A stretch of 64,000 bases of DNA, taken from Bryobacteraceae bacterium (GTDB lineage: Bacteria; Acidobacteriota; Terriglobia; Bryobacterales; Bryobacteraceae). Below the pieces are notes generated by a model. The model was given only the letters and a program-made list of their open reading frames with translations, did no database searches and was not told the origin of the DNA. Each line of letters opens with the position of its first letter. The stretch's first letter is position 1. Shown one piece after another: positions 27,619-46,031 of the stretch. Position numbers and translations under genes: made by a program. The stretch is from positions 2,248-66,247 of the forward strand of contig DATIFQ010000359.1 in NCBI GenBank assembly GCA_035455185.1. Reading direction: 5' to 3'.

Positions 27619-29002
27619 CCCTCCCAGGCCGGAAGCGAGGCGGCGGCGCCTTTTCTTGCTGATGTTGGGTCTCCTGGCTGCGATCGGCACGGCATCTCCG
27701 GCTCAGCCTCCGGCAGAGGACCTCGCGCTGGCCATCGGCGGCAGCGCCGTCATCGACTATCCGGAAGACATCGGCCGCCTCGCTACCAGCAATCCAGAGG
27801 TTGTTGATGCGTTAGCGGTAACCAAACGCGAGGTGCTTCTCCAGGCGAAGTCGCACGGCATGGCAACGATCGTCATCTGGTCCAAGTCCGGCCGGAGGGA
27901 TTTTTACCGGGCGACCGTTTCCTACAACCTGGAACCGGTCCGTAAGCTCCTGCGCGATACATTTCCCGGAGAGGAGATCCAGGTTCAGGCGGCGAAGGAT
28001 TCGCTCTCGCTAACGGGCAGGGTGAGCAGCCAGGCGGTGGCTGAGCGTGCCGGCACGCTCGTAACACCACTCGCAAAAAGTGTAGTCAACAATCTCGATG
28101 TTTCGAGCTCTGCTGAGAAGCAGATTCTGCTGCGAGTGCGTTTCGCCGAGCTTGACCACACTGCGTCGGCCAGCTTCGGGGCAAGTCTCATTTCAACCGG
28201 GGCTTTGAATACCCCCGGCCGGATCACAACCGGGCAGTTCTCCGCCCCAGCGCCGCAGAAGATCTTTCCGCCGGGACACGATCTCTCCGGGGTCACCGGC
28301 GTCATTCCGGGCGGCAACCCTGGGACCTTCAGCAACTTCTCGATTGGAGACGCGCTGAACATCTTCGCGTTCCGCCCCGACCTGAATCTCGGAGCGGTGA
28401 TCCAGGCGCTGCGGAACCGAGGCCTGTTGCAGATCCTGGCGGAACCAAACCTGGTGACGACAAACAACAAGGAAGCAAGCTTTCTGGTGGGCGGCGAGTT
28501 TCCGGTGCCGATCGTCCAGGGGGGCGCCAACGCAGGTGCGGTAACGGTGCAATTCCGCGAGTTTGGCATTCGGCTCGCGTTTCTCCCGGCGGTGACCGGG
28601 CACGACACGATCAAGCTTCATGTGAAGCCGGAGGTGTCGTCGCTCGACTTCGCCAACGGCATTTCGGTTTCCGGTTTCAGCATCCCTGCCCTGTCCACCC
28701 GCCGCATGGAGACAAACATCGAGCTCGGGCTGGGACAGAGCTTCGTGATCGCCGGCCTGATCGATGACCGCGCGACGGAAAATCTGGCGAAGATTCCCGG
28801 CCTTTCGCAGATCCCGGTTCTGGGGGCGCTCTTCAAGAGCCGCTCCGAGAAAAAGACGAAGACCGAGCTGATCGTGCTGGTCACGCCGGAGATCACCGGC
28901 CCGGTAGATGCGTCGCGGGTCCCCTCCGGCCCCACGATGCCGCTAGACTTCATTCCGAAAGTGGACCGGCCGCCGGCGGCCCGCGAAGAAGGCCGGAAGT
29001 AA
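27599..29002 (+). CDS. cpaC: Type II/III secretin-family pilus secretin CpaC/RcpA
   Basis: 467 aa with a signal peptide and a BON-like N-domain. Secretin core is LLQILAEPNLVTTNNKEASFLVGGEFPVP ... IPGLSQIPVLGALFKS...TELIVLVTPEI. Overlaps cpaB by 20 nt. Confidence 0.85.
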   Translation: MKRNPTSPPRPEARRRRLFLLMLGLLAAIGTASPAQPPAEDLALAIGGSAVIDYPEDIGRLATSNPEVVDALAVTKREVLLQAKSHGMATIVIWSKSGRRDFYRATVSYNLEPVRKLLRDTFPGEEIQVQAAKDSLSLTGRVSSQAVAERAGTLVTPLAKSVVNNLDVSSSAEKQILLRVRFAELDHTASASFGASLISTGALNTPGRITTGQFSAPAPQKIFPPGHDLSGVTGVIPGGNPGTFSNFSIGDALNIFAFRPDLNLGAVIQALRNRGLLQILAEPNLVTTNNKEASFLVGGEFPVPIVQGGANAGAVTVQFREFGIRLAFLPAVTGHDTIKLHVKPEVSSLDFANGISVSGFSIPALSTRRMETNIELGLGQSFVIAGLIDDRATENLAKIPGLSQIPVLGALFKSRSEKKTKTELIVLVTPEITGPVDASRVPSGPTMPLDFIPKVDRPPAAREEGRK

Positions 29003-29012
29003 GAGGCGAGGA

Positions 29013-30221
29013 ATGGGCCGGCCGGGCAAATGGCGAAGCGCGGAGTTGTCGGCGGTGTTGATTGCACCGGACCGGGAACTGGCGGCTCAATTCTGCCGGA
29101 CCCTGGAGACCACGCGTGCGTTTCAAATCGTCGCCGAGCTGAAGAAATACCCGAGTGAACAAACGCTCGATATCCGCCTGCGGCAACTCCGGCCGGACGC
29201 AGTACTGGTCGATCTCGCCAGCAACTTCGAGACGGCCGCCGGCCTGCTGCGGGCTCTGGCGGCGTTTCGGCCTGCCGTTCATGTGATCGGACTGCATCGA
29301 ACTAACGATCCGGACGTGGTGTTGCGGGCGCTGCAACTCGGGGCGAGCGAGTTCTTCCATGCGCCGTTTGACCCGGCCGTTCAGCGGGACGCCGTCGCCG
29401 GCTTCCTGAGGCTGCGCCGCGTCGAGGTCCAGGCCGGCGTTCCACCGGGAAAGGTCGTGGTGTTCTCCAGCGCCAAGCCCGGCTCCGGCGCATCCGTGCT
29501 GGCCTGCCAGACGGCGCTGGCCCTACGCGAGGCGACGGGCGAGCGGATCCTGCTCGCGGATCTCGACCTGACAGGCGGCACCGTGGGCTTCTACCTGAAA
29601 GTGAAGTGCGCGCACTCGCTGATCGACGCGGTGGAGCGATGCGAACACCTTGAACCGGCGGCATGGGCCGCGCTGACCACCACGTGCGATGGTCTCGATG
29701 TGCTGCCGGCCCCGGCTGTTCCTCGTGAAGCGAACCCAGACAACGACCGCCTGAGAGCGGTGCTCGATCAGTCGCGCCACCTCTACGACTGGGTCCTGCT
29801 CGACCTGCCGGCGATCTTCCACCCGGTGAGCCTGACCGCGTTAGTCGAATGCGACAGCGCGTTTCTCGTCTCGACCGCGGAACTGCCCAGCCTGCATCTT
29901 GCCCGGAAGGCCGTGACCCTGCTCGCACAGTTGGGAATCGGCAAGGAACGGCTGAACGTTCTAGTGAACCAAGCAGGCCGGGGAGACGGCATGAGCGGAT
30001 CGGACTTGGAAAAGATCTTTGGCTGCGCCGTCCATTCGTCCTTTCCTAGCGATTATTCCTCGCTTCATAAGGTGGTGACTCTCGGGGAAGCTGTGGCTCC
30101 GGATTCGAATCTCGGGAAGGCGGTGGGAGAGTTTGCCAGCCGGTTGGCAGGCCTCGCCCGGAGTGAGAAGCGGCGGGCAGGCATGGTGTTCAATTCAGAC
30201 CCGGCCTTCGCCGGAACGTAA
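29013..30221 (+). CDS. cpaE: TadZ/CpaE pilus-localisation protein (receiver-like + atypical ParA/MinD domain)
   Basis: 402 aa with receiver-like N-domain AVLIAPDRELA. The atypical P-loop is VVVFSSAKPGSGASVLA (no GK[ST]), followed by LLADLDL and VLLDLP. Confidence 0.75.
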   Translation: MGRPGKWRSAELSAVLIAPDRELAAQFCRTLETTRAFQIVAELKKYPSEQTLDIRLRQLRPDAVLVDLASNFETAAGLLRALAAFRPAVHVIGLHRTNDPDVVLRALQLGASEFFHAPFDPAVQRDAVAGFLRLRRVEVQAGVPPGKVVVFSSAKPGSGASVLACQTALALREATGERILLADLDLTGGTVGFYLKVKCAHSLIDAVERCEHLEPAAWAALTTTCDGLDVLPAPAVPREANPDNDRLRAVLDQSRHLYDWVLLDLPAIFHPVSLTALVECDSAFLVSTAELPSLHLARKAVTLLAQLGIGKERLNVLVNQAGRGDGMSGSDLEKIFGCAVHSSFPSDYSSLHKVVTLGEAVAPDSNLGKAVGEFASRLAGLARSEKRRAGMVFNSDPAFAGT

Positions 30222-30242
30222 GTCGGAGCGACGGGAAACAGT

Positions 30243-31604
30243 ATGTTGACACACGGGGACACAAAAGCTTCGGCGGAGGTTACCTGGGAGCAGCGGCTGC
30301 TTCGGAACTCTGCCCGCCCCAAAACCGCCCTGAAGCCTGAATGTCAGGAACTGAAATTCATCCTCCACCGAAAGCTGCTCGAGAAGATCAATCTCGAGGC
30401 GCTGGCAACCATCGAGAACCAGCGTGTGCGCGGCGAGGTCCGGCAGGCGCTCATCACGCTGATGGAGGGCGAGCCCACGCTGTTGAGCTCACTGGAGAAA
30501 CAACAGATCGTCGAGGAAGTGCTCGACGAGGTCTTCGGACTCGGTCCGCTTGAGGCGCTGCTTCAGGACACAACCATCTCCGACATCCTCGTGAACACCC
30601 ACCGGGCGGTCTTCGTCGAGCGGCGCGGTCTTCTGGAGCCGACCAACGTCAGTTTTCGAGACGACAACCACTTGCTTCACATCATCGACAAGATCGTCTC
30701 GCAGGTAGGTCGCCGGATTGACGAATCGACTCCGATGGTGGATGCGCGGCTCAGCGACGGCTCACGCGTGAACGCGATCATCCCGCCGCTCGCTGTAGAC
30801 GGGCCGCTGTTGTCGATTCGCCGTTTCTCGGTCGACAAACTGATGCCGCGGGACTTGGTGGAGCGCAAGGCGATGACGCCGGGCATGATGGATCTCCTTG
30901 AAGCGGCCGTAAAGGCCCGGTTGAACATCATCATCGCCGGGGGGACCGGCGCCGGAAAGACCACGCTGCTGAACGCGCTGTCGGCCTTCATCGCCCCCCG
31001 GGAGCGTATCGTCACCATCGAAGACGCGGCCGAACTTCAATTGAAACAGCCGCATGTCTGCCGGTTGGAAACCAGGCCAGCCAACCTGGAGGGACAAGGA
31101 GCGGTCCGCCAGCGGGAGTTGCTGGTCAACAGTCTCCGCATGCGGCCGGACCGTGTCGTCGTCGGCGAGGTCCGCGGTGCGGAGGCTCTCGACATGCTTC
31201 AGGCGATGAACACAGGTCACGACGGATCGCTGACGACGGTCCACGCCAACAGTCCGCGCGACGCGATCTCGCGCCTCGAGGTGATGGTCTCGCTGGCAAA
31301 CGCAAACATGCAGTTGAGTGCCATTCGCCAACAGATCGCGAGCGCGGTACATCTGTTCGTCCAGGCGGCGCGTCTGAGCGACGGCTCTCGCCGTGTAGTT
31401 AACGTCACCGAAGTGACCGGCATGGAGGGCGAGGTCATTACACTCCAGGACATCTTCGTCTTCGAGAAGCGCGGCCTGTCACCCGAGGGCAGGGTCATCG
31501 GCAGATTCGCCGCGACTGGCATCCGCCCGCGGTTTTACGAGAAGTTTCTTGCCGCCGGCATCCAACTTCGCCCGGACCTGTTCGACGAGCAGTTGGAGAT
31601 CTGA
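30243..31604 (+). CDS. cpaF: CpaF/TadA secretion ATPase
   Basis: 453 aa with Walker [26 protein letters not shown], Walker B/His box [32 protein letters not shown]. Confidence 0.92.
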
Positions 31605-31615
31605 GGAGGTAGGAG

Positions 31616-32596
31616 GTGGCGTTCTTCTGGATCCTGTTTGTCACCCTCTGGCTGCTGGCGATTGCCTGCTGGTGGTGTGCCTCGAGGGTGCTGCGGAATT
31701 CCGATCGCAGCCGCATCCGCGGCCGTTTGCTCGGCACGCCAAGCTCCAGCACCGGCAAGAAGGAGGGTTCGCCGGCGCCGGTGCTGATTCCGACCGAGGA
31801 CAAGGATACGGGGAAGATCGTCCTGCGGCTGCTTGACCGCTTCCGGTTGAACGTCCGCCTCCAGGAACTCCTGGAGCAGTCCGGCCTCAAGTGGCACGTC
31901 GCCAGGCTGACGCACGCATGCCTGGCGCTGGCGCTTGCCGGATTCGCAATCGGCGGGTGGACGGCGCCCCCAGGCCACGCGGAGATTCCGGTCCTGCTCG
32001 CGTGCGCTGGTGGCGCGCTTCCGCTTCTGCTGGTGTCGCGGAAGCGAAGGAAACGGCTACGCCGCTTTGAGGAACAGTTTCCGGACAGCCTGGAATTCGT
32101 AGCACGATCCATGCGTGCCGGGCATGCGTTCTCGGTGTCGCTCGAAATGTTGCACCGCGAGTTTCAGGATCCATTGGCCTCGGAGTTCCACCGCACGTTC
32201 GACGAACACAATCTTGGCCTGCCGCTCGACGCCGCACTCGAAAAACTGGCGCGGCGAGTGCCGCTGATGGATGTTCACTTCTTCGTGTCGGCGGTGCTGC
32301 TGCAAAAGCGGACGGGTGGCAACCTAGCCGAACTGCTCGACAAGCTGGCCTACGTCATTCGTGAGCGGTTTAAGCTTCGTGGCCGCATCCGGGCGGTCAG
32401 CGCGCACGGCCGGATGACGGGTGCGGCGCTGTCCACAATCCCGGTGGGAGTGGCGGGAATGATGTTCTTCGTCAACCGGGAGTACGTCACCTTTTTCGCC
32501 AACGACCCGACCGGCCAGTGGATGGCCGGGGGCGCGGTGGCGCTTCAGTTGATCGGCTACGGAATCATCAGAAAGATCGTGTCCATCGAGGTATGA
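31616..32596 (+). CDS. tadB: TadB (type II secretion F-domain inner-membrane platform protein)
   Basis: 326 aa with a GTG start after GAGGAGGTAGGAG. T2SS-F-like segments are FPDSLEFVARSMRAGHAF and LLQKRTGGNLAELLDKLA. Confidence 0.85.
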   Translation: MAFFWILFVTLWLLAIACWWCASRVLRNSDRSRIRGRLLGTPSSSTGKKEGSPAPVLIPTEDKDTGKIVLRLLDRFRLNVRLQELLEQSGLKWHVARLTHACLALALAGFAIGGWTAPPGHAEIPVLLACAGGALPLLLVSRKRRKRLRRFEEQFPDSLEFVARSMRAGHAFSVSLEMLHREFQDPLASEFHRTFDEHNLGLPLDAALEKLARRVPLMDVHFFVSAVLLQKRTGGNLAELLDKLAYVIRERFKLRGRIRAVSAHGRMTGAALSTIPVGVAGMMFFVNREYVTFFANDPTGQWMAGGAVALQLIGYGIIRKIVSIEV

Positions 32597-32673
32597 GGCG
32601 TGGAACAAGTCAGCAAAACCGGCGGACGGCACCGTTGCCCGGCGGCGAGAAGGTTTCGGAACGGATGTGAGAA

Positions 32674-33594
32674 ATGGAACTGCTGCTGACTGGGATCCTG
32701 TTCGTGGTTGTCATGGGCGCCGTCTCGGCGGCGGGAGTACGGCTCTGGGTTAGGCCGAAAGCGGCGATGGAGCGTGTCACCGGAGCGATTGTCGGCGCAG
32801 AACGCGGTGTCCCGGTTCATCCGAGCTTAGTCTTTCGGGATCTGATCCACCGAATGGGCGCGCTGCTTCCAGCGTCCAGCCGGGAGGCAGGGCTGACACA
32901 ACGGCGGATGATTCGAGCTGGCTTCCGGAATCCCGGCGCGGTCAAGATCCTCTACGGCGCCAAGATCTTTCTCGGAGCCGTTCTCCCACTCGCTGCCGGC
33001 CTCGCTGTCGCCGGGTGGGAGGGGCCGTCGGATACCAAGATGGTCGTCGTCGCCGGCGCAGCGGCGGCTGGGTTTATGGCTCCCGGATACTGCTTGAAGC
33101 TGGTGGTAAAGCGAAGGCAGAAGCGTATCCGGCGCGGGCTGCCGGACGCGTTGGACCTGCTGGTGATCTGTGTCGAATCGGGGCTGGGGCTCGACCAGGC
33201 CATCCTCCAGGCCGCCAAGGAACTCGAAATCTCCCATCCCGCCATCAGCGAGGAATTCGCGCTCGTCAACCTCGAGCTGAAAGCCGGCAAGCGGCGTGCC
33301 GAAGCGCTGCGAAACTTGGCCGACCGGACGTCGGTGGACGAACTCAAGAAGCTCGTTGCTGTCCTCATCCAGGCGGACCGGTTCGGCACGAGCATTTCGC
33401 AGAGCCTGCGTACGCATTCGGACTTCATGCGCGTGCAGGCGCGCCAGCAGGCGGAGGAGAAGGCGGCCAAGCTCGGCGTGAAGCTGGTGTTCCCGATCTT
33501 CTTCTGTATCCTGCCGACGCTCTTTGTAGTGACTGTCGGCCCGGTGGCGGTGCGGATCGTCCGTGACCTGCTCCCGATGATGAACAACATGTAG
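32674..33594 (+). CDS. tadC: TadC (type II secretion F-domain inner-membrane platform protein)
   Basis: 306 aa with LPDALDLLVICVESGLGLDQA and LIQADRFGTSISQSLR, plus C-terminal TM helices. Confidence 0.85.
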   Translation: MELLLTGILFVVVMGAVSAAGVRLWVRPKAAMERVTGAIVGAERGVPVHPSLVFRDLIHRMGALLPASSREAGLTQRRMIRAGFRNPGAVKILYGAKIFLGAVLPLAAGLAVAGWEGPSDTKMVVVAGAAAAGFMAPGYCLKLVVKRRQKRIRRGLPDALDLLVICVESGLGLDQAILQAAKELEISHPAISEEFALVNLELKAGKRRAEALRNLADRTSVDELKKLVAVLIQADRFGTSISQSLRTHSDFMRVQARQQAEEKAAKLGVKLVFPIFFCILPTLFVVTVGPVAVRIVRDLLPMMNNM

Positions 33595-33847: not shown

Positions 33848-36811
33848 GTGATGAAAAGGGAAGCATGGTGGAGCCTTGTTCTGTGCGGCTGCCTGGCGGC
33901 GCCGGTATGCGGGGGCACATTCGGGAAGGCTGTCTCGATCGGAGGGCACGCGTCCGATCTCGTCCTCGACGAAACGCGCGGCGAGCTCTACGTCGCGAAT
34001 TTCACAGCGAACCGGATCGAGGCACTGGCGGTCCCCGATGGCACACTGAAACACTCGATCAACGTCGCGCCGCAGCCCGGCTCGCTCGCCCTCTCGCCCG
34101 ACGGCCGCTACCTGCTCGTCACGCACTACGCCAACTACCAGACCCCCGGCATGCCCCGTAACGCCATTACCCTGCTCGATCTCGCGACCGGCGCCAGGCA
34201 GACTTTCGCGCTCTCGGCGCCGCCGCTCGGGGCTGCCTTCCTGATCAACGGCCGCGCGCTGATCGTAACCACCACGGAATTCCTCTCGTTTGAGCCGGTC
34301 TCCGGCACCGTCCGGCTGCTCGATACGGTGGAAGGAGTCACGGCCACAACGCTCCCGGCGCCGCCGGCCAACTTTCCCCCACAGATCATCGCCGCCTCGG
34401 TGGCCGCCTCGCGGGACCAACAGGTGGTCTACGGCCTTACCGACACTATCCGCTTCCGCTACGATCTACTCAGCGGCCGCGTCGTCTCCCTCGGCTACAC
34501 CGCGGAGCCGCCGCTCGGGCCGCGCGTGGTCAGCGTCAGCCGGGATGGCGCGTATTACACCGCCGGATGGGCGCTCTTTGACCGTCAGGGCTCCGTGATC
34601 GCTCAGTTTCCCGGCGCTTCCGGGCTTCTCAATGTCGGCAGCCACGCCATCGACTCGGACCGCGGAGTGATTTACGCTCAGATCCCGGCAGAAGAGGGCG
34701 CGCCACCGGTCTTGATGATCGCCGACGCGGACAATCTCACGGTGCGCGAACGGGTCCAACTGCCTGAAAACCTCGCCGGCCGCAGCGTGCTTAGCTCCGA
34801 CGGTTCCATGATGTATTCGGCTTCCGACAGCGGGGTGCTCATTCTGCCGGTGGGAAACTACAGCCGCGCCCGCCGCTTGAAAACCTCGTCGGAGGAGATC
34901 TTCCTACGGACAGGATTCTGCAACCGCCGGGTGGCGGTTCAGGGTCTCTGGATCGAAGACGAAAGCGGCGCCACCACTGACTTCACGATCGCCTCAAGCC
35001 ATCCCGCAATCACCGTATCGCCGTCTTACGGAACCACGCCGGCCCGGGTGGAGGTCCGGGCTGATCCGAACGCCCTTCAGAACCGATCTGGCACGGCTGT
35101 GGCCTGGCTGGACATCCGCTCGTCCGGGGCGGTGAATCTGCCGTCCCGTGTACGCGTGCTGGCCAGTCTCCTCGAACCTGACCAGCGTGGCACCGTGATC
35201 CACATCCCGGGACGCCTGGTCGACATTCTCGCCGACCCTGTTCGCAATCGCTTCTATGTGCTGCGACAGGACCGGAACGAGGTTCTGGTCTTCGACGCCG
35301 CCGACTACCGCCGGATCGCCGTCCTCCGAACCGGAAACACGCCCACGCAAATGGCGATCACCGCCGACCGCCGTCTCCTGCTCGTCGGCAACGATAACTC
35401 CCAAATTGCGAATGTCTACGATCTCGATACCCTGGTACAGACCGCTCCGGTACGCTTCCCGCCCGGTCATTACCCACGGTCTCTGGCGGCGGCCGCTGGA
35501 GCTATTCTAGCCGCCTCCCGCGTGGCCGGCCCGAACCACACGATCGATCGCGTCGACTTGCTCACCCGCACCGCCAGCGAATTGCCCACACTCGGCGTTT
35601 ACGAGAACAAGGTCGATCTCCACACAGTTTTGGTAGCCTCCGGCAACGGCTCCTCCATCCTGGTCGCCGAGGCGGACGGCAGCCTCATGCTTTACGACGC
35701 CAACGCCGCCACATTCACCATCTCACGGAAGGACTACACGTCTCTCGAAGGCGCGTATGCCGCATCGAACAGCGGCATGTTCGTGGTCGATAACCTTTTA
35801 CTGAACTCGTCTCTTGTCCCGGTCGGGCGCTTCGAGAAGGGAGCGAACCTTTCCTCGGGCTTCGCCTTCGACGGCGATTCCGGCTTGCTGACCCTCGCTC
35901 CCCCTGGAGGAGGCGCCGGGGTAATGGAACGCGTCGACCTCTCCTCGGCGGCCGCTGTCCGGCCGACCAGGATCGCCGAAGCGCCACCGGAGCGTGAACC
36001 AGGCTTTGCGCTGACTCGCACGCTCGCGCCGCTGGCCAACCGCCAGGCGATCGTCTCGCTTACGACCGCCGGGTTTACCGTGCTTTCCTGGAACTACGAT
36101 GCCGCAACCGCGCCGCCCAGAATCGACGCCGTCGTCAACGCCGCCGACTTCAGCCGGCCAGTGGCCCCCGGCGGACTGATCGCCGTATTCGGTGAGGACC
36201 TGAGCCCGGTGAATATGGCCACGAGCGAGATGCCGCTTCCCACCGCCCTCGGCGACACGTGCCTCACCGTCAACGGAGCACCTGTACCAATGCTGTTCGT
36301 GTCACCCGGACAGGTGAACGCCCAGTTGCCGTTTGAGGCCGAGGGAAACGTTACGCTGGCCCTGCACACGCCGGGAGGCGTCAGCGACAACTTTCCGCTG
36401 AGTGTGTCGTCCACTGCTCCGAGCCTGTTCCACAGCGGATCTGCTGGACCGTTGGTAGACATAGCGACCGTCGTGCGCGCCGAGAACAACCAGCTCGCCA
36501 CTCAAGCCAATCCCGTTCACGGCGGCGACGCCCTCGTGATCTACCTCACCGGACTTGGCCGCGTTTGGCCGGCCGTTCCCGCCGGCTCTGCCGCACCGTA
36601 CGATCCCCTCGCACAGGTTGTGATCCCGCCTGCGGTCACGCTCGGCGGCACGGAACTGCCGGTACTGTACGCCGGCCTTACGCCGGGTTGTGCCGGCGTC
36701 TATCAGATCAACGTCCGTGTGCCGCATTGGGCCCCGGCAGGCAGCAAGGTTCCGCTGACGATCGATCAAGGGGACTCTTCGACCACCGTTACCGTCCGCG
36801 TCGTGCAATAA
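33848..36811 (+). CDS. Large secreted/surface beta-propeller-repeat protein with two C-terminal Ig-like (Solibacter-type C-terminal) domains
   Basis: 987 aa with a signal/lipoprotein-like N-terminus MMKREAWWSLVLCGCLAAPVCGG. YVTN/YncE-like repeats include ELYVANFTANRIEAL, LALSPDGRYLLVTH and RFYVLRQDRNEVLVFD. There are two C-terminal repeats of the pattern NAADFS..VAPGGLIAVFGEDLSP...LTVNGAPVPMLFVSPGQVNAQLP. Confidence 0.7.
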   Translation: MMKREAWWSLVLCGCLAAPVCGGTFGKAVSIGGHASDLVLDETRGELYVANFTANRIEALAVPDGTLKHSINVAPQPGSLALSPDGRYLLVTHYANYQTPGMPRNAITLLDLATGARQTFALSAPPLGAAFLINGRALIVTTTEFLSFEPVSGTVRLLDTVEGVTATTLPAPPANFPPQIIAASVAASRDQQVVYGLTDTIRFRYDLLSGRVVSLGYTAEPPLGPRVVSVSRDGAYYTAGWALFDRQGSVIAQFPGASGLLNVGSHAIDSDRGVIYAQIPAEEGAPPVLMIADADNLTVRERVQLPENLAGRSVLSSDGSMMYSASDSGVLILPVGNYSRARRLKTSSEEIFLRTGFCNRRVAVQGLWIEDESGATTDFTIASSHPAITVSPSYGTTPARVEVRADPNALQNRSGTAVAWLDIRSSGAVNLPSRVRVLASLLEPDQRGTVIHIPGRLVDILADPVRNRFYVLRQDRNEVLVFDAADYRRIAVLRTGNTPTQMAITADRRLLLVGNDNSQIANVYDLDTLVQTAPVRFPPGHYPRSLAAAAGAILAASRVAGPNHTIDRVDLLTRTASELPTLGVYENKVDLHTVLVASGNGSSILVAEADGSLMLYDANAATFTISRKDYTSLEGAYAASNSGMFVVDNLLLNSSLVPVGRFEKGANLSSGFAFDGDSGLLTLAPPGGGAGVMERVDLSSAAAVRPTRIAEAPPEREPGFALTRTLAPLANRQAIVSLTTAGFTVLSWNYDAATAPPRIDAVVNAADFSRPVAPGGLIAVFGEDLSPVNMATSEMPLPTALGDTCLTVNGAPVPMLFVSPGQVNAQLPFEAEGNVTLALHTPGGVSDNFPLSVSSTAPSLFHSGSAGPLVDIATVVRAENNQLATQANPVHGGDALVIYLTGLGRVWPAVPAGSAAPYDPLAQVVIPPAVTLGGTELPVLYAGLTPGCAGVYQINVRVPHWAPAGSKVPLTIDQGDSSTTVTVRVVQ

Positions 36812-36822
36812 GTCCAATCGAA

Positions 36823-36847
36823 GCCACGGGAGATCTCCTCCCGTGGC
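36823..36847 (+). terminator. Perfect 10-bp GC-rich hairpin after the beta-propeller gene (no U-tract)
   Basis: GCCACGGGAG (36823-36832) / CTCCCGTGGC (36838-36847) with a 5-nt loop, 11 nt after the TAA stop. Confidence 0.4.
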
Positions 36848-36878
36848 TCGGACCTGCCGATCTAACCCTCGGAAGCTT

Positions 36879-37511
36879 ATGCGGATTTTGATGCCAGTTG
36901 TCCTGCTCACGGCCGCCGCGGCAGGCCTTGCCCAGACATGGGAGGCCGGCGGTTCCGCCGGCGGAAGCTTGTCGAGGAATGTCGGCGTGTCCAGCCAATT
37001 GGGTCAGGCCAGCGCCGGTCTTGCTAGCGGCGCCGCCTTCGGCGCAGTCCTCGGACAGAGCATCCACCGCATCGTCAGCGGCGAGATTCGCTACACCTTC
37101 CAACCGGGCGAAATCCAGGTTGCCTCCGGCGGCACACGGACCAGCTTCCGCAGCCAATTCCACGCGATTCACTACGACCTCCTGTTCCACACGCGTCCGG
37201 AAGGTTCCTCCGTCCGGCCCTTCTTCGCAGCCGGCGGAGGCGGACGGATCTTTAAGGGCACGGGAAAGGAGAACGCCTACCAACCGCTTCAGGAGTACGC
37301 TCTGCTCACAAGGACGCGGGAGTGGAAGCCGATGGCCAGCGTTGGGGGAGGCGTCAAAATCGCAATCTCTCCACGAATGTTCCTGCGTGTCGAGTTCCGC
37401 GATTACATCAGCCCCTTCCCCAAACAGGTGATCGCTCCCGCCGATGGTTCGAAGATCAGCGGCTGGCTCCACTCCGTCGTCCCACTAGTGGGAATCAGCG
37501 TGCCCCTTTAA
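36879..37511 (+). CDS. Small outer-membrane beta-barrel protein (OmpA-beta-barrel/OmpW-like size class)
   Basis: Start reset to ATG 36879 (MRILMPVVLLTAAAAGLAQT signal peptide). About 190 mature residues show alternating-hydrophobic strands with Gly/aromatic girdles (IRYTF, HYDLLFH, FLRVEFRDY). Confidence 0.6.
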   Translation: MRILMPVVLLTAAAAGLAQTWEAGGSAGGSLSRNVGVSSQLGQASAGLASGAAFGAVLGQSIHRIVSGEIRYTFQPGEIQVASGGTRTSFRSQFHAIHYDLLFHTRPEGSSVRPFFAAGGGGRIFKGTGKENAYQPLQEYALLTRTREWKPMASVGGGVKIAISPRMFLRVEFRDYISPFPKQVIAPADGSKISGWLHSVVPLVGISVPL

Positions 37512-37583
37512 AACAGGGCGGCCAGCCCATTAAATCCGCCAACCACCAGAATTAGCAACTGTTTCGACGCTTTTCGCCTTATA

Positions 37584-38519
37584 GTGGGGGAGGTGCGAGC
37601 TTCGTTCTTCTGGGTCATTTCCTCACTCGCTGTCCCGCTCACGCTCGCGGGACAGAACGCTCCGGCGAATCAGTACGTTGGCGGCGAAGTTTGCCGAAAG
37701 TGTCATCCGAACGTCTGGCTCAATTTCTACAAGAACCCGCATTACAAGAGCGTCGCGAGCGGCACTGAGGCTCCGGATAAGACCGGATGCGAGGGTTGCC
37801 ACGGCCCGGGGCAGGCGCATGTGCAGGCGTCCGGCGGCAAAGCCACCATCCGCGCCTTCTCCGTCATGGAACCGAAACAGGTGATTGACGCCTGCCTCGC
37901 CTGCCATAGCAGGGATCTCTCGAAGGCGAACATCCGCCGTTCGTCGCACACCCTGGCAGGCGTCGCGTGTTCAGACTGCCATTCCATTCACCGCTCGCCG
38001 ATCCCGAAATTCCTGCTTGCGAAAGAGCAGCGGGACGTCTGCTACGGCTGCCACGCGCCGGTTCGCAGCCAGTTCTCGATGCCTTTCAAGCACCGTGTGA
38101 ACGAAGGCTTCATGCAGTGCACGGACTGCCATAATCCACACGGCGCACCCGCGGCGACGTGGCGCATGGGAGCCCGTCCGCGAATGGTTGAGCATGCGCT
38201 CGCCAATGAGGAGCCGTGCCTGAAGTGCCACTCGGACAAACGCGGCCCGTTCGTCTTCGAGCATCCGTCAGTGCGTGTCGACGGCTGTGAAACCTGCCAC
38301 AATCCCCACGGCTCGACGAACGCCAAGCTTCTGCGGCGGCCGGTCGTATTCACGGTCTGCCTCGAATGCCACAACGGCGCGGGTGCCTTTGGCCGGCAGG
38401 GCGACGGGATCAGGACGCAGTCTGCCTCACACAACATGGCCGACCCACGCTACCAGAACTGCACTGCGTGTCACGTGCGAATCCACGGCTCGAACGCCGA
38501 CCCTCTCTTTCTGCGATGA
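37584..38519 (+). CDS. Periplasmic decaheme c-type cytochrome, MtrA/DmsE/PioA/MtoA-like
   Basis: 311 aa (start GTG 37584 or GTG 37593) with signal peptide FFWVISSLAVPLTLAGQ. Exactly ten CXXCH motifs: CRKCH, CEGCH, CLACH, CSDCH, CYGCH, CTDCH, CLKCH, CETCH, CLECH, CTACH. The C-terminal CTACHVRIHGSN resembles the MtrA/NrfB-type ending. Confidence 0.85.
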   Translation: MGEVRASFFWVISSLAVPLTLAGQNAPANQYVGGEVCRKCHPNVWLNFYKNPHYKSVASGTEAPDKTGCEGCHGPGQAHVQASGGKATIRAFSVMEPKQVIDACLACHSRDLSKANIRRSSHTLAGVACSDCHSIHRSPIPKFLLAKEQRDVCYGCHAPVRSQFSMPFKHRVNEGFMQCTDCHNPHGAPAATWRMGARPRMVEHALANEEPCLKCHSDKRGPFVFEHPSVRVDGCETCHNPHGSTNAKLLRRPVVFTVCLECHNGAGAFGRQGDGIRTQSASHNMADPRYQNCTACHVRIHGSNADPLFLR

Positions 38520-40498
38520 GGTCACTTCTGATGAGGCGCACCGTGTTCTTAATCCTCGCTTCCCTCGGGCCGCTGGCGGGCCAGCAGACCGTCACTCCTA
38601 CGGCAGCCACGGTCGGGCCTCCTCGCGGAACGGAGATCGGCAACTACAATGTGATGAACTCCTTCGAGACGGGATACCGGTTCCGCTCCGTGGGTGGCGA
38701 TCTCGGCAAGTATCGAAGCGACGTCAACTTCGGCAACGGCATCCGGCTTCTCGGAAGCAGGCTCACCGTCAACTCGAAGGACGGTCACGGCAGCCTCTTC
38801 GACGAGATTGTGCTGTCCACTCAGGGTCTCGGAAACGATCCATACCAGTTCTCGTCGCTGAGGATTCAGAAGAACGGCCTCTACCGTTACGATCTCCTCT
38901 GGCGGCTCAGCGATTACTTCAACCCAGCGCTTCCGCTTGCCGGAGGCCTGCACCGCATGGACACCGAGCGCCGGATGCAGGATCACGATCTGGCGCTACT
39001 TCCGCAGTCCCCCGTGCGGTTGCTGCTCGGCTACACGCGGAATTCCCAAGACGGCGCGGCCCTCACGACCGTGCAGTCCTTCAGCGCTGGCGACGTCTCA
39101 CCGGTGTTTGCCGACATCCGCCGCATCCGGAATGAGTACCGGCTCGGAGGCGAAGCCGAACTGTTCGGCATGAAGCTGCACGTCGTGCGCGGCTGGGACG
39201 ACTTCAAGGAGGACACGCCCTTTACGCTTGCGCCCGGTACCGCTGGCACATCCTCCCCATTCACTACCTTCCGGCGGAACGAGCCGTATCACGGGACAAC
39301 GCCTTGGTGGCGCGTTCATCTTCGCGGAGAAAACAAGTACTGGGCTGCGGCGGGACATTTCACGTACGCAATTGGCCGGCGCGATTTTATCTTCGATGAG
39401 GCCGCCGTCGGAACCGACCGGTTCGGCTCCGAGCGTAACCGGCAGGTCCTTGTCGCCGGCGACGGGCGGCGCCCGGTCACCTCTGGAAACGTCACTCTCA
39501 GCTTTTTTCCGACGGACAACCTAACCATCTCCAACCACACCGCCTTCCACAACACGCGCATGGAAGGCGATTCCGTGTACAGAGAGTTAAACAACGCCAC
39601 GGCCTCCGGCCCGTATCTGTTCTTCAACTTCCTCGGAATCCGGTCCATAACAAACACGACCGACGCGACCCTGCGCGTCTCGAAATGGCTGGGGCTTTAC
39701 GGCGGCTATTACTACTCCACCCGGCGCATCCGTTCCGTCGAGCAGGTGGAGATTGATGGTGTTCCACAGCGGCTGCCTGCGAGTCAGGACAACCGCCTCC
39801 AATCTGGGCTCGCGGGAATTCGTCTGAACTTCGCCCGCTCCCTGACGGTAAGCCTCGACGCCGAGGTAGGACGCGCCGACCGGCCGTTCTTCCCGATTTC
39901 CGAGCGTGACTATCACGGCTTCAACGCCCGCGTGCGGTACAAGTCAAAGTCGTTCGCCCTCTCGGCGTCCGCACGGACGAACTACAACACGAACTCTGTT
40001 TCTCTGTCGAGCCACAGCTCCCGAGGCCGTAATTATTCGGTGGACGGCTCGTGGACACCACGTGACTGGTTCTCTGTAGACGGCGGTTATTCGAAACTTC
40101 ACCTCGATACGGCTTCAGGGATCGCCTACTTCGTCGATTTTGAGTTGATTCAGGGCGAGCGGTCGATCTATGTCAGCAACATTCATGCAGCCAACCTCGG
40201 CGTCCGTTTCGGTCTCGGAAAACGCGCTGACGTCTACACCGGCTACAGTCATGTTGAAGACACGGGTGACGGCCGCGTCAATCCTTTCATCGGGTCGGGC
40301 GCGCGACCCGATCCCTTCGTGCCCGCACAGACCTTCCCACTTGCGTTCCGGAGCCCGCTCGCCCGCTTATCGGTCCGCCTTCACGGCAACCTGCGCTGGA
40401 ATGCCGGCTACCAGCACTACAACTATCGCGAGGACTTCTTCGGCCGGCAGAGCTACCGCGCCCACACCGGCTATACGAGCGTGCTATGGTCTTTCTAA
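38516..40498 (+). CDS. Large outer-membrane beta-barrel, candidate MtrB/PioB-type porin partner of the decaheme cytochrome
   Basis: Start reset to ATG 38516, overlapping the cytochrome TGA as ATGA. 660 aa with signal peptide MRSLLMRRTVFLILASLGPLAGQ. Amphipathic beta-strand periodicity runs throughout with many Y/F/W-G/N turns. The C-terminus YTSVLWSF ends in Phe (OMP signature). No CXXCH. Confidence 0.65.
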   Translation: MRSLLMRRTVFLILASLGPLAGQQTVTPTAATVGPPRGTEIGNYNVMNSFETGYRFRSVGGDLGKYRSDVNFGNGIRLLGSRLTVNSKDGHGSLFDEIVLSTQGLGNDPYQFSSLRIQKNGLYRYDLLWRLSDYFNPALPLAGGLHRMDTERRMQDHDLALLPQSPVRLLLGYTRNSQDGAALTTVQSFSAGDVSPVFADIRRIRNEYRLGGEAELFGMKLHVVRGWDDFKEDTPFTLAPGTAGTSSPFTTFRRNEPYHGTTPWWRVHLRGENKYWAAAGHFTYAIGRRDFIFDEAAVGTDRFGSERNRQVLVAGDGRRPVTSGNVTLSFFPTDNLTISNHTAFHNTRMEGDSVYRELNNATASGPYLFFNFLGIRSITNTTDATLRVSKWLGLYGGYYYSTRRIRSVEQVEIDGVPQRLPASQDNRLQSGLAGIRLNFARSLTVSLDAEVGRADRPFFPISERDYHGFNARVRYKSKSFALSASARTNYNTNSVSLSSHSSRGRNYSVDGSWTPRDWFSVDGGYSKLHLDTASGIAYFVDFELIQGERSIYVSNIHAANLGVRFGLGKRADVYTGYSHVEDTGDGRVNPFIGSGARPDPFVPAQTFPLAFRSPLARLSVRLHGNLRWNAGYQHYNYREDFFGRQSYRAHTGYTSVLWSF

Positions 40499-40501
40499 AC
40501 C

Positions 40502-40855
40502 ATGGAGCTCAAGCTCACGCTCTTCAACAGCATCACGCTGATGATCATGGGCTTTACGCTGCTGACGGTGATCCCGCTCGCGCGAGGACGCCTGAACCGT
40601 AACTGGCCGTTTCTTTACTTTCCTTTGGTTTTCGCCTACTGGCGAGCCTTCGACGGCGCCCTGAATACCTGGTGGATCTGCGCCGGACTGGTCATTGCCC
40701 TGCTCCTGCGCTTCGAGATCATCGGTGCAAGATCCCGTGCGCCGTTGCGGTGGCTGTCAGTCATCGCACTGGCTTATGTTTTTCTGCGGGGAGTGGATCT
40801 GCTGGTGGGAGGGGAACTGTTCTACTTCTTTTCCGTCGGCAGGCCGGACGCCTGA
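40502..40855 (+). CDS. Small 4-TM membrane protein of unknown function
   Basis: 117 aa, ATG 3 nt after the barrel stop. It has four hydrophobic segments, no His and only one Cys. Its 3' end overlaps the convergent rhodanese gene by 34 nt. Confidence 0.5.
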   Translation: MELKLTLFNSITLMIMGFTLLTVIPLARGRLNRNWPFLYFPLVFAYWRAFDGALNTWWICAGLVIALLLRFEIIGARSRAPLRWLSVIALAYVFLRGVDLLVGGELFYFFSVGRPDA

Positions 40856-41219
40856 TACGCCCGCCAGCCTCCGTCGAGCGAGATAACGTCCGTGTAGCCC
40901 ATCTTCTGGAGCGCGTCTGCCGCGAGCGCGGAGCGATACCCACCGCCGCAATAAAGCACCATTTTTGTGCTCTTTTCCGGGACATGAGTCTCGATATCGC
41001 GCTCGATAATTCCCTTGCCGAGATGCAGCGCGCCGGCGGCATGCCCGGCAGCCCACTCGCTCTCCTCGCGGGTGTCAACGAGGAGGAACTTCTCGCCCGA
41101 GGAGACCAGCCTCTTGTAGCCGTCGATGTCGATCTGCCGCACCCGCGACTTGGAGTCGTTGACCAGCGCGAGAAAGCCTGGGTTGTGCCGTTTGCCGCCG
41201 TGAGAGAGAGCCATAAGAG

Positions 41220-41223
<4 letters not shown>
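40822..41223 (-). CDS. Single-domain rhodanese (sulfurtransferase)
   Basis: 133 aa with [10 protein letters not shown] and active-site loop YCGGGYRS. Its ATG overlaps the murA stop (ATGA). Confidence 0.85.
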
Positions 41224-42468
<1,245 letters not shown>

Positions 42469-42476
<8 letters not shown>

Positions 42477-43362
42477 GCCGCAACGCCTCCGACACCCGGC
42501 CGCCGCAGGCCGTCAACTTCTTTTCGGCTTCCTCGCGGGAGACCCCGAGCCTCGCCATCACAATCGCAGTTCTGACGGTGCCGCCGGACTGTTCGAGCAA
42601 CGCTCCGGCCTGCTCGTAATCGACTTCCGCTGCCTTTGCAATGATTCTCCTCGCACGATTGACGAGTTTCTCGTTGGTCGGCTGCACGTTGACCATGAGG
42701 TTGCCGAACACGTACCCAAGGCGAATCATCGTCGCAGTCGAGATCATGTTCAAGACAAGCTTGGTCGCCGTGCCAGCCTTCAGCCGCGTCGAACCGGTCA
42801 CGACCTCTGGTCCCGGAAGCGGCGCGATCGGAATTTCCACTGCCCGCGAAAGCTCCGAGTCCGGCGTGCAACTGATCCCTGCTGTCACGGCGCCGATTCT
42901 CCGCGCGGCGGCGACCGCACCCAGCACATATGGGGTGCGGCCACTGGCCGCGATCCCCACAAGCACGTCTTTCGCGCTGAAGCCGCGATCCTTAAGGTCG
43001 CGCGCGCCTCGCTCCGGATCGTCCTCAATCCCCTCGGCCGAATGGGCGAGCGCCCGCTCGCCGCCGGCGATGATGCCCTGCACCGTTCCCGGCGATACGT
43101 TGAACGTCGGTGGGCATTCGGAGGCGTCCAGCACACCGAGCCGTCCGCTCGTGCCTGCGCCGATGTAGAACAACCGCCCGCCCTGCTTGATCGCCGCTAC
43201 GGCCGCATCCACCAGGCGGGCGACGTTAGGAATTTGGGAAGTCACCGAGGCGGCGACCTTCATATCCTCGGCGTTGAAGATCTGAAGTATTCCTTCGGTG
43301 GAGAGGGCGTCAATTCCTTCGGATTCGGGATTCGGCTGTTCGGTCAGGAGTTTACCGAGCAT
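42469..43362 (-). CDS. murQ: N-acetylmuramic acid 6-phosphate etherase
   Basis: 297 aa with an SIS domain. Motifs are [26 protein letters not shown] and [18 protein letters not shown]. Overlaps the murA start by 8 nt. Confidence 0.88.
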
Positions 43363-43366
43363 GGCC

Positions 43367-44203
43367 CTACACTGCGCCTGCCTTCTTCATCACCACAAGT
43401 GTGGTCTGCAGACCGAGGCGCGCCCCGTCCTCGGGGGCCGTGTCCTTCTTCAGTCGGCCAAGCACTTCTGGACTCACGCCGTACTTGTAACCCACCTTCT
43501 TCAGAGCTTGGAAGAAGCCGGCCAGGTCGATGACACCTTCTCCCGGCATCAGCCGCTGGTTGTCGCGTATCTGATCCGGGGGCAGCTTCGGCGCGTCGGA
43601 CACATGCACGTGTACGATCCGCTCGGCCCCTGCGTCCTCGATGTCGCGGGTCGTAGCGCCCGCATGATGCCAATGCCACGCATCGAGCAGCAACCCCACG
43701 GTCGGTCCGCACTCCTTGCAGAAATCGAGCATCTCGTCCATTCGCCAGATAAACTCGTGCGGATGCAGTTTCCGGAGATGCATCGGGCTCACGAACTCAA
43801 GGCCCAGGCGCATTCGCGAGGGCGCCAGGATCGCTGCGACCGCCTGAAATCGGTCTTTGTAAATCTTGCGCAGCTCCGCCTTCGGAGTGTCGCTCGAAGG
43901 CAGAATCCAAGTCAGCAGCCCCGGCGCTCCGATGGAGGCTGAGAACTTCACTGTCGGCTCGAGCTTCTTGAGGTCCGCCTGGAACGTTGCTTCGTCTTTT
44001 CGGAACTCAACCAGCAGGTCGGTCGCCGCGGGCTTGAGTTTGAGCGTCTTCAGAAGTGCGCGGGTCGAATCCAGTCCCTCACTCATCGCCCGGCTGAGAT
44101 AGATTTCCGTTCCGGGATAACCCAGCCGGGCGGCCATGTGAGCGAACTCCGGCCAGCCCACCTTCGCACCTGCGAGCAGCGAACCGTTCAAACAGACGTA
44201 CAC
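43367..44203 (-). CDS. Sugar phosphate isomerase/epimerase (xylose-isomerase-like TIM barrel)
   Basis: 278 aa with LLLDAWHWHHAG, VHVSD and PGEGVID motifs typical of the AP-endonuclease-2/xylose-isomerase-like TIM-barrel family. Confidence 0.7.
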   Translation of the reverse strand: MYVCLNGSLLAGAKVGWPEFAHMAARLGYPGTEIYLSRAMSEGLDSTRALLKTLKLKPAATDLLVEFRKDEATFQADLKKLEPTVKFSASIGAPGLLTWILPSSDTPKAELRKIYKDRFQAVAAILAPSRMRLGLEFVSPMHLRKLHPHEFIWRMDEMLDFCKECGPTVGLLLDAWHWHHAGATTRDIEDAGAERIVHVHVSDAPKLPPDQIRDNQRLMPGEGVIDLAGFFQALKKVGYKYGVSPEVLGRLKKDTAPEDGARLGLQTTLVVMKKAGAV

Positions 44204-44212
44204 CGCATCCTC

Positions 44213-45526
44213 CTAATAGTTCTTTTCTTTCTCTACCCGCGGTCGGTCGGCACGGCTCATCGACTTGACGCCTGCCAGGGACATGTCCGCTTTCACCAAC
44301 GCATCCGTACCCGCCATCACCTTCGCGACCGCTCTCCCGATGTCCTCGACATCGGCCTCGTCGCCAAGCAGCAGGAATTGCGGAAGCCACACCGATTCCT
44401 CGTAGGCCGCCCGCTCCGCTACCGGGCAGCGGAAGGCACGGTAGTTGACTGGCTCCTCACGGTCGATCCGAAGCTGCGGGAAGTCCTCCGGCTTCGCACC
44501 GAAGAGGTCGCTGCGATAGACCGGCTCATAGAACCGTCCGTCGCTCGGAATGCCCTCAGCATCCAGCGCCGCGACGAACAGGTCGCGAGAGACGCGCCGA
44601 TCCGCCGGCCGATATTGGAAATCGTAGTTGTAGATGGCCTCGCGCGTCAGCGCGGGCTGGGCAGGCAACGGACGGACACCGTCGATTCCAGCCAGCATTT
44701 TGGTCAGCAGCGTGGCGTGCCTCGACCGCTTTGCGGCAAGCTCTTCCAGCCGCTCCAGTTGTCCAAGCAATACCGCTGCCTGGAACTCCGTGATCCGGTA
44801 GTTCGATCCGACGATCCGCTTCTTGAACTGGTCCGTGACGCTCGCCCGGCCGCAGTTGACCAGCGACTGCACCAGCTCGAAGCAATCCAGCCGTGAGGTA
44901 ATGACAATCCCGCCCTCGCCCGAGGTCATCAGCTTGCTGGACTGGAGGCTGAAACAGCCGATGTCGCCCATTGACCCAGCGCCCCTGCCCTTGTACTGTC
45001 CGCCGTGCACGTGGGCGCAATCCTCGATCACGATCAGATCGCGCTCCTCGGCGAGCTTCAGCAGCGGGTCCATTTCGGCAAATCGCATGGCGAGGTGTAC
45101 TGGCAGTAGCGCTTTTGTGCGTGGCGTCAGCGCTTGCCGGGCCGCCTCGACGTCCATGCAATACGTATCGGGATCGACGTCCACGAAGATCGGGATCGCG
45201 CCGGCGTCTAGCACCGCCGTGGCAGTACCGTCCCAGGTGTAGGCCGGGACGATCACTTCGTCGCCGAAGCCGACGCCTGCAGCCTTCAGCGCTGCCAGTA
45301 TGGCAATCGTCCCGTTGGCAAGGCAGCAGCCGTACCGCGCCCCATGATGGGAGGCGAATTTCCGCGCAAACTCATCCGCAAGCAGGTTTGGAAACGGGTA
45401 ACCACCCCAGTTGCGGCTCTCGAGCACAGCTACCAACCGCTCTCGGTCGCGGCCGTCGTATTGGGGCCATGCCGGAAAGGGCTTGTTTCGAACGGGCTTG
45501 CCGCCGAGGATCGCCAAGTCGCTCAT
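44213..45526 (-). CDS. DegT/DnrJ/EryC1/StrS-family PLP-dependent sugar aminotransferase
   Basis: Start reset to ATG 45526 (MSDLAILGGKPV). The PLP-lysine region is CFSLQSSKLMTSGEGG, with VIEDCAHVHG. Confidence 0.85.
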   Translation of the reverse strand: MSDLAILGGKPVRNKPFPAWPQYDGRDRERLVAVLESRNWGGYPFPNLLADEFARKFASHHGARYGCCLANGTIAILAALKAAGVGFGDEVIVPAYTWDGTATAVLDAGAIPIFVDVDPDTYCMDVEAARQALTPRTKALLPVHLAMRFAEMDPLLKLAEERDLIVIEDCAHVHGGQYKGRGAGSMGDIGCFSLQSSKLMTSGEGGIVITSRLDCFELVQSLVNCGRASVTDQFKKRIVGSNYRITEFQAAVLLGQLERLEELAAKRSRHATLLTKMLAGIDGVRPLPAQPALTREAIYNYDFQYRPADRRVSRDLFVAALDAEGIPSDGRFYEPVYRSDLFGAKPEDFPQLRIDREEPVNYRAFRCPVAERAAYEESVWLPQFLLLGDEADVEDIGRAVAKVMAGTDALVKADMSLAGVKSMSRADRPRVEKEKNY

Positions 45527-45654
45527 CTGAACTAGTATCCTATAGGGAACTTCCCGGCGATACCGCTTTCGGCTTATGGACCGGGCGGTCTCAAGGAGAG
45601 CGATGGGCACTCCCGTGGCGTTGGGACGGCAGGTCTGTGGAAGTGCGTTGATAC

Positions 45655-45685
45655 CCCCGGGCGCGGCGTGAACCGGCGCCCGGGG
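45655..45685 (-). terminator. GC-rich hairpin downstream of the IscA/ErpA-like gene (no U-tract)
   Basis: 10-bp stem CCCCGGGCGC (45655-45664) / GCGCCCGGGG (45676-45685) with an 11-nt loop, about 25 nt past the stop at 45708. Confidence 0.4.
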
Positions 45686-45707
45686 CGGAAGGAATCCCGG
45701 ATGGGCC

Positions 45708-46031
45708 TCAAGCGTTGAATGAACTGCCGCAGCCGCATGTCGACTTCACGTTCGGGTTATCGAACTTAAACCCTGACCCTTCAAGGGTTTCCACGTAGTC
45801 GACTTTGGCGCCATCAAGATAGAGCATGCTCGCTTGGTCAACGAAGACTTTGAGGCCGTCAAATTCGTAAGTTTTGTCGAGGAGGCCCGGGCTGTTCTCG
45901 AAAGCCATGGAGTAGCTGAAACCGGAGCAACCCCCACCCACTACTGCGATTCGAAGACCAGCCGGCTTGGGCTCCTGCATGTCCAGGATTTCCTTCACCT
46001 TGCCGACGGCCGTCTCGGTAATCTGAATCAT
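45708..46031 (-). CDS. IscA/ErpA (HesB) family iron-sulfur cluster insertion protein
   Basis: 107 aa with GLRIAVVGGGCSGFSY and the C-terminal CGCGSSF motif. Confidence 0.9.
   Translation of the reverse strand: MIQITETAVGKVKEILDMQEPKPAGLRIAVVGGGCSGFSYSMAFENSPGLLDKTYEFDGLKVFVDQASMLYLDGAKVDYVETLEGSGFKFDNPNVKSTCGCGSSFNA

Follow-up and report, generated by a model that had tools for sequence, protein, structure and literature searches.

The window analyzed in this work, a stretch of 64,000 nt from a Bryobacteraceae bacterium (GCA_035455185.1, contig DATIFQ010000359.1, positions 2,248 to 66,247 of the forward strand), contains two overlapping genes which encode a decaheme c-type cytochrome and an outer-membrane β-barrel, and which probably specify a porin-cytochrome conduit of the MtrAB/PioAB/MtoAB type. 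The pair and the genes next to it are listed in Table 1.

Table 1. Cytochrome-barrel pair and adjacent genes, with positions in the window and the basis of each assignment
Feature	Position	Strand	Basis
Periplasmic decaheme c-type cytochrome, MtrA/DmsE family, 311 amino acids (aa)	37584..38519	+	TIGR03508, ten CXXCH, MtrA match
Outer-membrane β-barrel, ~26 strands, remote MtrB/PioB homologue, 660 aa	38516..40498	+	AlphaFold2 (AF2), Foldseek, hhalign
Small hydrophobic membrane protein, 117 aa, 3-4 predicted transmembrane segments	40502..40855	+	Conserved neighbor
Secreted protein, 987 aa, two YncE-like β-propellers and Solibacter C-terminal domain, without heme motif	33848..36811	+	TIGR03437
Small outer-membrane β-barrel protein, ~210 aa, signal peptide, without heme motif	36879..37511	+	PF13505 OMP_b-brl, 33.7 bits

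Sequence and fold of the cytochrome and the barrel

Translation of the open reading frame (ORF) of the cytochrome yielded exactly ten CXXCH motifs (CRKCH, CEGCH, CLACH, CSDCH, CYGCH, CTDCH, CLKCH, CETCH, CLECH, and CTACH), as an initial annotation of this DNA had counted in a protein of the same length; its further statement that the protein ends in a heme motif holds in so far as the last motif is close to the C-terminus (...CTACHVRIHGSNADPLFLR), but not at the very end. A hydrophobic leader is visible at the N-terminus. When all six frames of the 64 kb were scanned for ORFs with a minimum length of 60 aa, CXXCH was confined to this one, and a chance origin of the ten-motif cluster is therefore excluded. 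Translation starts at GTG 37584 or at the in-frame GTG 37593. A promoter-like TTAGCAAYTGT...N...TATAGT is present at 37555-37595, just upstream of the cytochrome, and recurs in several related loci (L068, L070, L072, and L077); since its TATAGT overlaps GTG 37584, the start may be GTG 37593, from which the transcript would possibly be near-leaderless.

The cytochrome matched TIGR03508 (NCBIfam "DmsE family decaheme c-type cytochrome") with 265.7 bits (cut-off 192.2) and from end to end, residues 33-306 corresponding to profile positions 1-257 of 258. The GSU2203 family decaheme model NF041028 was matched below its cut-off (215.6 bits, cut-off 325), the NrfB/NrfH models gave only 27-37 bits in the NCBIfam scan, and Pfam recognized four Paired_CXXCH_1 stretches. 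The closest solved relative was MtrA (6r2q_A; phmmer E 6.2e-32, residues 32-305). In an alignment that included 30 gammaproteobacterial MtrA/DmsE proteins, to which identity was 32-37%, every one of the ten CXXCH motifs was invariant, as were His53, 79, 122, 136, 170, 186, 227, 242, and 301, H268 being nearly so. We take these histidines outside the motifs to be the distal heme ligands, by analogy with the MtrA structure, and they fit ten bis-His hemes in the cytochrome.

The name "cystathionine beta-synthase" was found attached to MtrA in PDB 6r2q_A and to Shewanella and Paraferrimonas homologues in NCBI/UniRef (P0283, P0306, P0310, P0311, and P0313), which looks like a propagated misannotation. 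The decaheme of L074 (4975-5962) is broken up into two ORFs that overlap and have 4 and 6 CXXCH, either by an assembly frameshift in a metagenome-assembled genome (MAG) or because it is a pseudogene.

The barrel begins with a signal-peptide-like hydrophobic leader (MRSLLMRRTVFLILASLGPLAGQQ) and ends in ...YTSVLWSF, with a terminal Phe. Its ATG shares letters with the TGA of the cytochrome in an ATGA overlap (38516-38519). Leader, terminal Phe, and overlap had all been described before and were confirmed. The only matches of the barrel to hidden Markov models (HMMs) were sub-threshold ones, to Porin_4 (22.2 bits, gathering threshold 27) and EpsL (20.1 bits, cut-off 275), and one out of 10 distant relatives of the barrel matched PF11854, with an E of 0.014. 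Thus, of the profile checks proposed in the initial annotation, the one for the cytochrome was passed (265.7 vs. 192.2 bits) whereas the one with the MtrB/PioB models gave no match.

The AF2 model of the barrel (50 sequences) had a mean predicted local distance difference test (pLDDT) of 78.5 and a predicted template modeling score (pTM) of 0.72. It consists of approximately 26-27 long strand segments that extend from residue 39, just past the signal peptide, to residue 659, and it includes no plug domain; a barrel with fewer than 20 strands or with a plug, the outcome that had been named as speaking against a conduit, is thus not what the model predicts. Foldseek against the PDB returned MtrB as the top match (6r2q_B; E 5.7e-14, TM 0.63/0.64), whereas 22-strand TonB-dependent transporters reached a TM of 0.47 or less.

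Profile-profile comparison by hhalign was carried out with a shallow alignment of the barrel family of the window, with a widened version of it (48 sequences), and with 45 aligned PF11854 proteins chosen from 108 collected (down to 23% identity), after true MtrB and DmsF genes had been recovered beside Shewanella and Ferrimonas MtrA/DmsE. The widened alignment matched the PF11854 proteins with Prob 99.7 and E 7.9e-26 over 574 colinear columns (positions 72-696 vs. 54-708), and the shallow one with E 7.9e-12; against a single MtrB or DmsF sequence the shallow alignment gave insignificant values (E 0.32 and 0.11, respectively). Homology to MtrB/PioB was therefore detectable only with deep profiles on both sides. 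Controls in which either alignment was reversed, so that composition and strand periodicity were kept, gave only E 0.006-0.14. As the match is full-length and the reversed controls were negative, the barrel is a genuine but deeply diverged MtrB/PioB homologue. No MtrB hallmark had been recognized by eye in the initial annotation, and curated HMMs see none either, but the homology is evident at the profile-profile level.

There is no cysteine in the barrel, and it therefore does not have the N-terminal CXXC of the MtrB consensus, which appears as WxCxxC near the N-terminus in the consensus of the 45 PF11854 proteins. This CXXC is a trait of gammaproteobacterial MtrB and is not known to be one of the whole MtrB/PioB family. 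More than 1600 homologues of the barrel were present in a 90%-clustered database, none of them with a Pfam domain on record, and all were named "hypothetical protein" among the matches listed. The barrel profile search retrieved 1685 representatives at 50% identity (E ≤ 1e-3), a sequence family that can be used for new Pfam or NCBIfam models.

Coupling, distribution and gene neighborhood

A scan of genomes, one per species, gave 521 matching stretches. The 80 that were retrieved all came from Acidobacteriota, mostly Bryobacteraceae and Solibacteraceae, and included the cultured Paludibaculum fermentans. In a comparison set of 83 related Acidobacteriota loci the decaheme gene was directly upstream of the barrel gene in every case (83/83), and no periplasmic reductase was encoded beside the cytochrome in any of them. 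The distance between the two genes was -4 nt in 38 of the 77 loci considered for gaps, and at most 10 nt in 73.

The 117-aa membrane protein starts 4 nt past the stop of the barrel and is probably co-transcribed with the pair. A homologue was found by jackhmmer directly 3' of the barrel in 58 of the 71 loci with enough flank (82%). The motifs NWPL.YY and LLLRFEF are conserved in it, there is no conserved His, and neither Pfam nor NCBIfam gave a match. The usual gene order was Tad pilus genes, optionally the propeller protein and the small outer-membrane protein, cytochrome, barrel, and small membrane protein, followed on the opposite strand by rhodanese, murA, and murQ genes.

The propeller protein (TIGR03437 Soli_cterm, 202.8 bits; weak YncE/PQQ-propeller matches) was encoded upstream of the pair in 52 of the 83 loci, and the small outer-membrane protein in 50, always alongside it. 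Both were considered as obligate partners and rejected, since they were missing in L001, L005, L007, and L044 despite the Tad-to-MurA context, as well as where the pair sits in other contexts. Because of these absences they are regarded as neighbors and not as parts, and their membership of the system is uncertain.

Upstream of the pair, the window contains a complete Tad/Flp pilus operon on the + strand (RcpC, secretin, CpaE-like, CpaF ATPase, TadB, and TadC; 26731-33594). Its position is kept in most Bryobacterales loci, TadC being present in 46 out of 83. Two loci with the pair in another context were of a different composition: in L062 (8010-9884) the start of a gene for a pyrroloquinoline quinone (PQQ)-dependent alcohol/glucose dehydrogenase (PF01011, E 2e-218) overlaps the barrel stop, and in L010 (3048-4814) a Haem_bd (PF14376) protein and an OmpR-type response regulator are encoded just upstream of the cytochrome. 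Scans for promoter and terminator consensus sequences around the locus gave background levels, and an Rfam scan of 30-48 kb found nothing.

Distant relatives of the barrel (25-32% identical) also follow a 10-CXXCH MtrA-like gene in all loci examined (L084 and L087-L092), and the identities of cytochrome and barrel drop together across these loci, so that the divergences of the two proteins co-vary. The genes added around them differed. In L090 and L091 a monoheme cytochrome c and a NapC/NirT tetraheme stand by the barrel in an Mto-like order (4516-6019 and 8438-10346 in L090, with NrfA/NrfH-like genes nearby); a Rieske protein and a cytochrome b are next to it in L088 (3313-4705); a pentaheme is downstream of the 32% identical barrel in L089; and two 9-heme cytochromes with FlgD_ig and type IX secretion system (T9SS)-tail domains are near it in L092 (475-6036). 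Since distant loci carry such different additions, the barrels form a decaheme-associated family embedded in varied extracellular electron transfer clusters, of which the Bryobacterales version is a stripped-down form.

A putative outer-membrane electron conduit and its alternatives

The organization of the pair was compared with that of known systems. As in PioAB of Rhodopseudomonas palustris and MtoAB of Sideroxydans lithotrophicus, the gene of an MtrA-family decaheme stands directly before that of an MtrB/PioB-family barrel and the cluster has no MtrC-type surface cytochrome, and the order decaheme, barrel, monoheme cytochrome c, NapC/NirT in the distant relative L090 resembles mtoA-mtoB-mtoD-cymA. 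In contrast with these systems, the locus has no linked gene for PioC, a high-potential iron-sulfur protein (HiPIP), for MtoD, or for CymA, the divergence of the barrel is too great for PF11854 or TIGR03509, a conserved small membrane protein is encoded 3' of it, and the host belongs to the Bryobacterales (Acidobacteriota) and not to the phototrophic or lithotrophic Fe(II) oxidizers. With Shewanella MtrCAB (6R2Q) the locus shares a cytochrome that can be aligned with MtrA from end to end, all heme and distal His ligands being kept, and a barrel whose best structural match is MtrB, to which it is homologous by profile comparison; identities are approximately 32% for the cytochrome and 10% for the barrel, and MtrC/OmcA and CymA genes (in the 64 kb) and the barrel CXXC are absent. 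DmsEFAB of Shewanella and Ferrimonas gives its name to the NCBIfam family of the cytochrome and has the same cytochrome-then-barrel order, as in L086, whereas the molybdopterin reductase and Fe-S subunit that directly follow the barrel in L086 do not do so here.

Mtr-like genes have already been published for this phylum, and the novelty of the locus was therefore overrated in the initial annotation. In 2013, MtrA homologues were pointed out for Solibacter usitatus and Terriglobus (PMC3669403), and a list of 2018 names Ca. S. usitatus and Bryobacter aggregatus among the organisms with candidate mtrA/mtrB "without complete mtr/omc operons" (PMC5900883). In Bryobacterales, five members form the "Group 5" MtrCAB clade described in 2022, which has a tetraheme downstream and no CymA (PMC8805035), and a 2026 preprint reports a Bryobacterales MtrC-DmsE-porin-CytC cluster (EET2) whose domainless porin matches MtrB (bioRxiv 10.64898/2026.05.27.727921). 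This Group 5/EET2 cluster belongs to the same bacterial order and likewise has a DmsE-family decaheme and an MtrB-like porin without recognized domain, the TM to 6r2q_B being approximately 0.68 for the EET2 porin (bioRxiv 10.64898/2026.05.27.727921) vs. 0.63 for our barrel. However, two of its four conserved genes, those for an MtrC-like decaheme and for a cytochrome downstream, have no counterpart in the locus studied here, which is positioned between the Tad pilus operon and the murA/murQ genes and appears far commoner (521 matching stretches vs. 5 Acidobacteriia matches and 28 MAGs in PMC8805035 and bioRxiv 10.64898/2026.05.27.727921). L089 may represent the Group 5/EET2 cluster.

The family of the cytochrome, the fold and homology of the barrel, and the adjacency of the two genes in 83/83 loci support the proposal, already made in the initial annotation, that the overlapping pair encodes an outer-membrane electron conduit of the MtrAB/PioAB/MtoAB type; judging from sequences and structural models, we assign to it a probability of roughly 0.85. 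The decaheme would be exported by Sec and then receive ten covalent bis-His hemes, and we infer that it is inserted lengthwise into the lumen of the ~26-strand barrel, where the heme chain would act as an insulated wire that links the periplasm with the cell surface. Through tight translational coupling, both subunits would be supplied together and in matching amounts. The conduit would be a minimal two-protein form, since genes for a surface decaheme, a quinol dehydrogenase, or a reductase are lacking nearby, followed by the conserved small membrane protein. Direct electron exchange at its outward-facing terminal heme may involve Fe(III)/Mn in soluble or chelated form, humic quinones, or shuttles; alternatively, the partners may be encoded elsewhere in the genome. 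With outward flow, respiratory or fermentative electrons would be disposed of under oxygen limitation. Mtr conduits are reversible and the heme wire is expected to be so too, the outward direction being more likely than the inward one.

Several results weigh against a conduit of this kind. Neither of the MtrB/PioB models, PF11854 and TIGR03509, matched the barrel at E ≤ 1 in Pfam/NCBIfam, and a search of PDB sequences with the barrel, as single sequence or as profile, found nothing. The heme-free AF2 model of the cytochrome, built on the alignment with the 30 gammaproteobacterial proteins, was poor (pLDDT 45.4, pTM 0.37). Pfam and NCBIfam scans of the approximately 40 ORFs of the window revealed no MtrC/OmcA, CymA/NapC or other quinol dehydrogenase, HiPIP, MtoD, or terminal reductase in the 64 kb, in agreement with what had been stated before for MtrC/OmcA, CymA/NapC, HiPIP, and terminal reductase, and in 75 of the 83 loci there was no other multi-CXXCH ORF within 6 kb on either side. 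Upstream of the cytochrome, FNR/CRP-type boxes were matched 3 times and Fur-type boxes once in 69 loci, which amounts to no regulatory signal, the Fur-box scan being crude and based on the E. coli consensus. Apart from P. fermentans, the Bryobacterales in culture are generally described as aerobic heterotrophs, so that a role dedicated to metal respiration sits oddly with the wide spread of the locus in the order.

The pair might be only the membrane-spanning core of a larger Mtr-like system and not work alone, an MtrC/OmcA-like surface cytochrome and a quinol dehydrogenase being encoded elsewhere in the genome. This is a real possibility, albeit one we doubt. Bryobacterales do have a separate MtrC-DmsE-porin-CytC cluster, namely the Group 5 MtrCAB (PMC8805035) or EET2 (bioRxiv 10.64898/2026.05.27.727921), and barrel relatives in other lineages stand beside large extracellular-type cytochromes, as in L092; but PioAB and MtoAB function without MtrC, most loci (75/83) have no further multi-CXXCH ORF nearby, and the 521 matching stretches in species genomes far exceed the 5 Acidobacteriia MtrCAB matches (PMC8805035).

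The same conduit might work mainly inward, in a PioAB- or MtoAB-like electron uptake or Fe(II) oxidation by which periplasmic carriers would receive electrons from extracellular Fe(II), reduced humics, or minerals. PioAB and MtoAB have the same two-gene design, with no MtrC-type surface cytochrome (PMC6831781, PMC3274759), the cysteine-free barrel is without the N-terminal CXXC of the MtrB-family consensus, and among the distant relatives L090 has an MtoD/CymA-like gene order and L088 a Rieske protein and a cytochrome b beside the barrel. Inward flow nevertheless appears unlikely, as neither the window nor any of the 83 Bryobacterales loci shows linkage of the pair to a HiPIP, MtoD, Cyc1-like, or bc-complex gene, we encountered no Fe(II)-oxidizing member of the Bryobacterales in the literature consulted, and a cultured member that carries the locus is reported to reduce Fe(III).

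An assimilatory role, in which extracellular Fe(III) minerals or chelates would be reduced for iron supply and not for energy conservation, is in keeping with the wide distribution of the pair, its fixed chromosomal position among housekeeping genes (Tad pilus, MurA, and MurQ), and the lack of linkage to respiratory genes. We consider it improbable, since no iron transporter is linked, no Fur-box-like signal was seen upstream in the 69 loci with the crude E. coli-based scan, and no precedent was encountered in the literature. That the cytochrome is a purely periplasmic NrfB-like carrier with an unrelated porin or polysaccharide-export barrel adjacent by chance, for which the sub-threshold Porin_4 and EpsL matches could be invoked, is scarcely credible in view of the 83/83 adjacency with overlapping start and stop codons, the full-length MtrB/PioB homology with negative controls, the best fold match to MtrB, and the 27-37 bits of the NrfB models against 265.7 for DmsE, nor was an NrfB-type cytochrome beside a reductase, the other contrary outcome foreseen in the initial annotation, what the loci revealed.

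Returning to the conduit of the MtrAB/PioAB/MtoAB type, its mechanism and the existence of Mtr-like genes in Acidobacteria are already known; what is new here is that a "hypothetical" barrel missed by current HMMs is an MtrB/PioB homologue, that its coupling to the decaheme is obligate, and that a third gene is conserved. As the barrel is labeled "hypothetical protein" and is domainless, HMM surveys which require an MtrB/PioB match would miss the pair. The barrel is a true MtrB/PioB relative, it is always coupled to a decaheme, and 521 matching stretches were found in species genomes, which suggests that outer-membrane electron transfer is a capacity so far under-counted in Acidobacteriota. 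With P. fermentans, a cultured Fe(III) reducer that carries the locus, the function is testable.

A bolder proposal is that the pair and the small membrane protein constitute a self-sufficient conduit without surface cytochrome, belonging to the core genome of the Bryobacterales, an order known mainly from aerobic heterotrophs of soil and peat, and serving a physiology new for Mtr-type systems, for which the odds seem to us rather low. Such a physiology would be, for example, the routine discharge of electrons to humic substances or Mn/Fe oxides when oxygen fluctuates, or coupling to periplasmic dehydrogenases (cf. the PQQ dehydrogenase gene in L062). Bryobacterales are reported to be abundant in soils and peat (PMC5900883; bioRxiv 10.64898/2026.05.27.727921), and if the proposal were true, one of the most abundant lineages in soil would have a major but hidden part in extracellular electron transfer.

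Other features of the window

A trehalose cluster on the - strand (12246-16431) encodes a TreT-like glycosyltransferase, a DUF5752 protein, a trehalose-phosphatase, and a GT20 trehalose-6-phosphate synthase. Two adjacent PmbA/TldD-like ORFs were located at 4349-7818, and an AddAB-type helicase-nuclease pair, with ORFs overlapping by approximately 200 nt, at 49456-55478. GC skew changed from +0.09 at 32-34 kb to values of -0.05 to -0.13 over 34001-46000, the stretch from the propeller protein to an aminotransferase; since consecutive + strand genes lie on both sides of the switch, it is not due to gene orientation alone.

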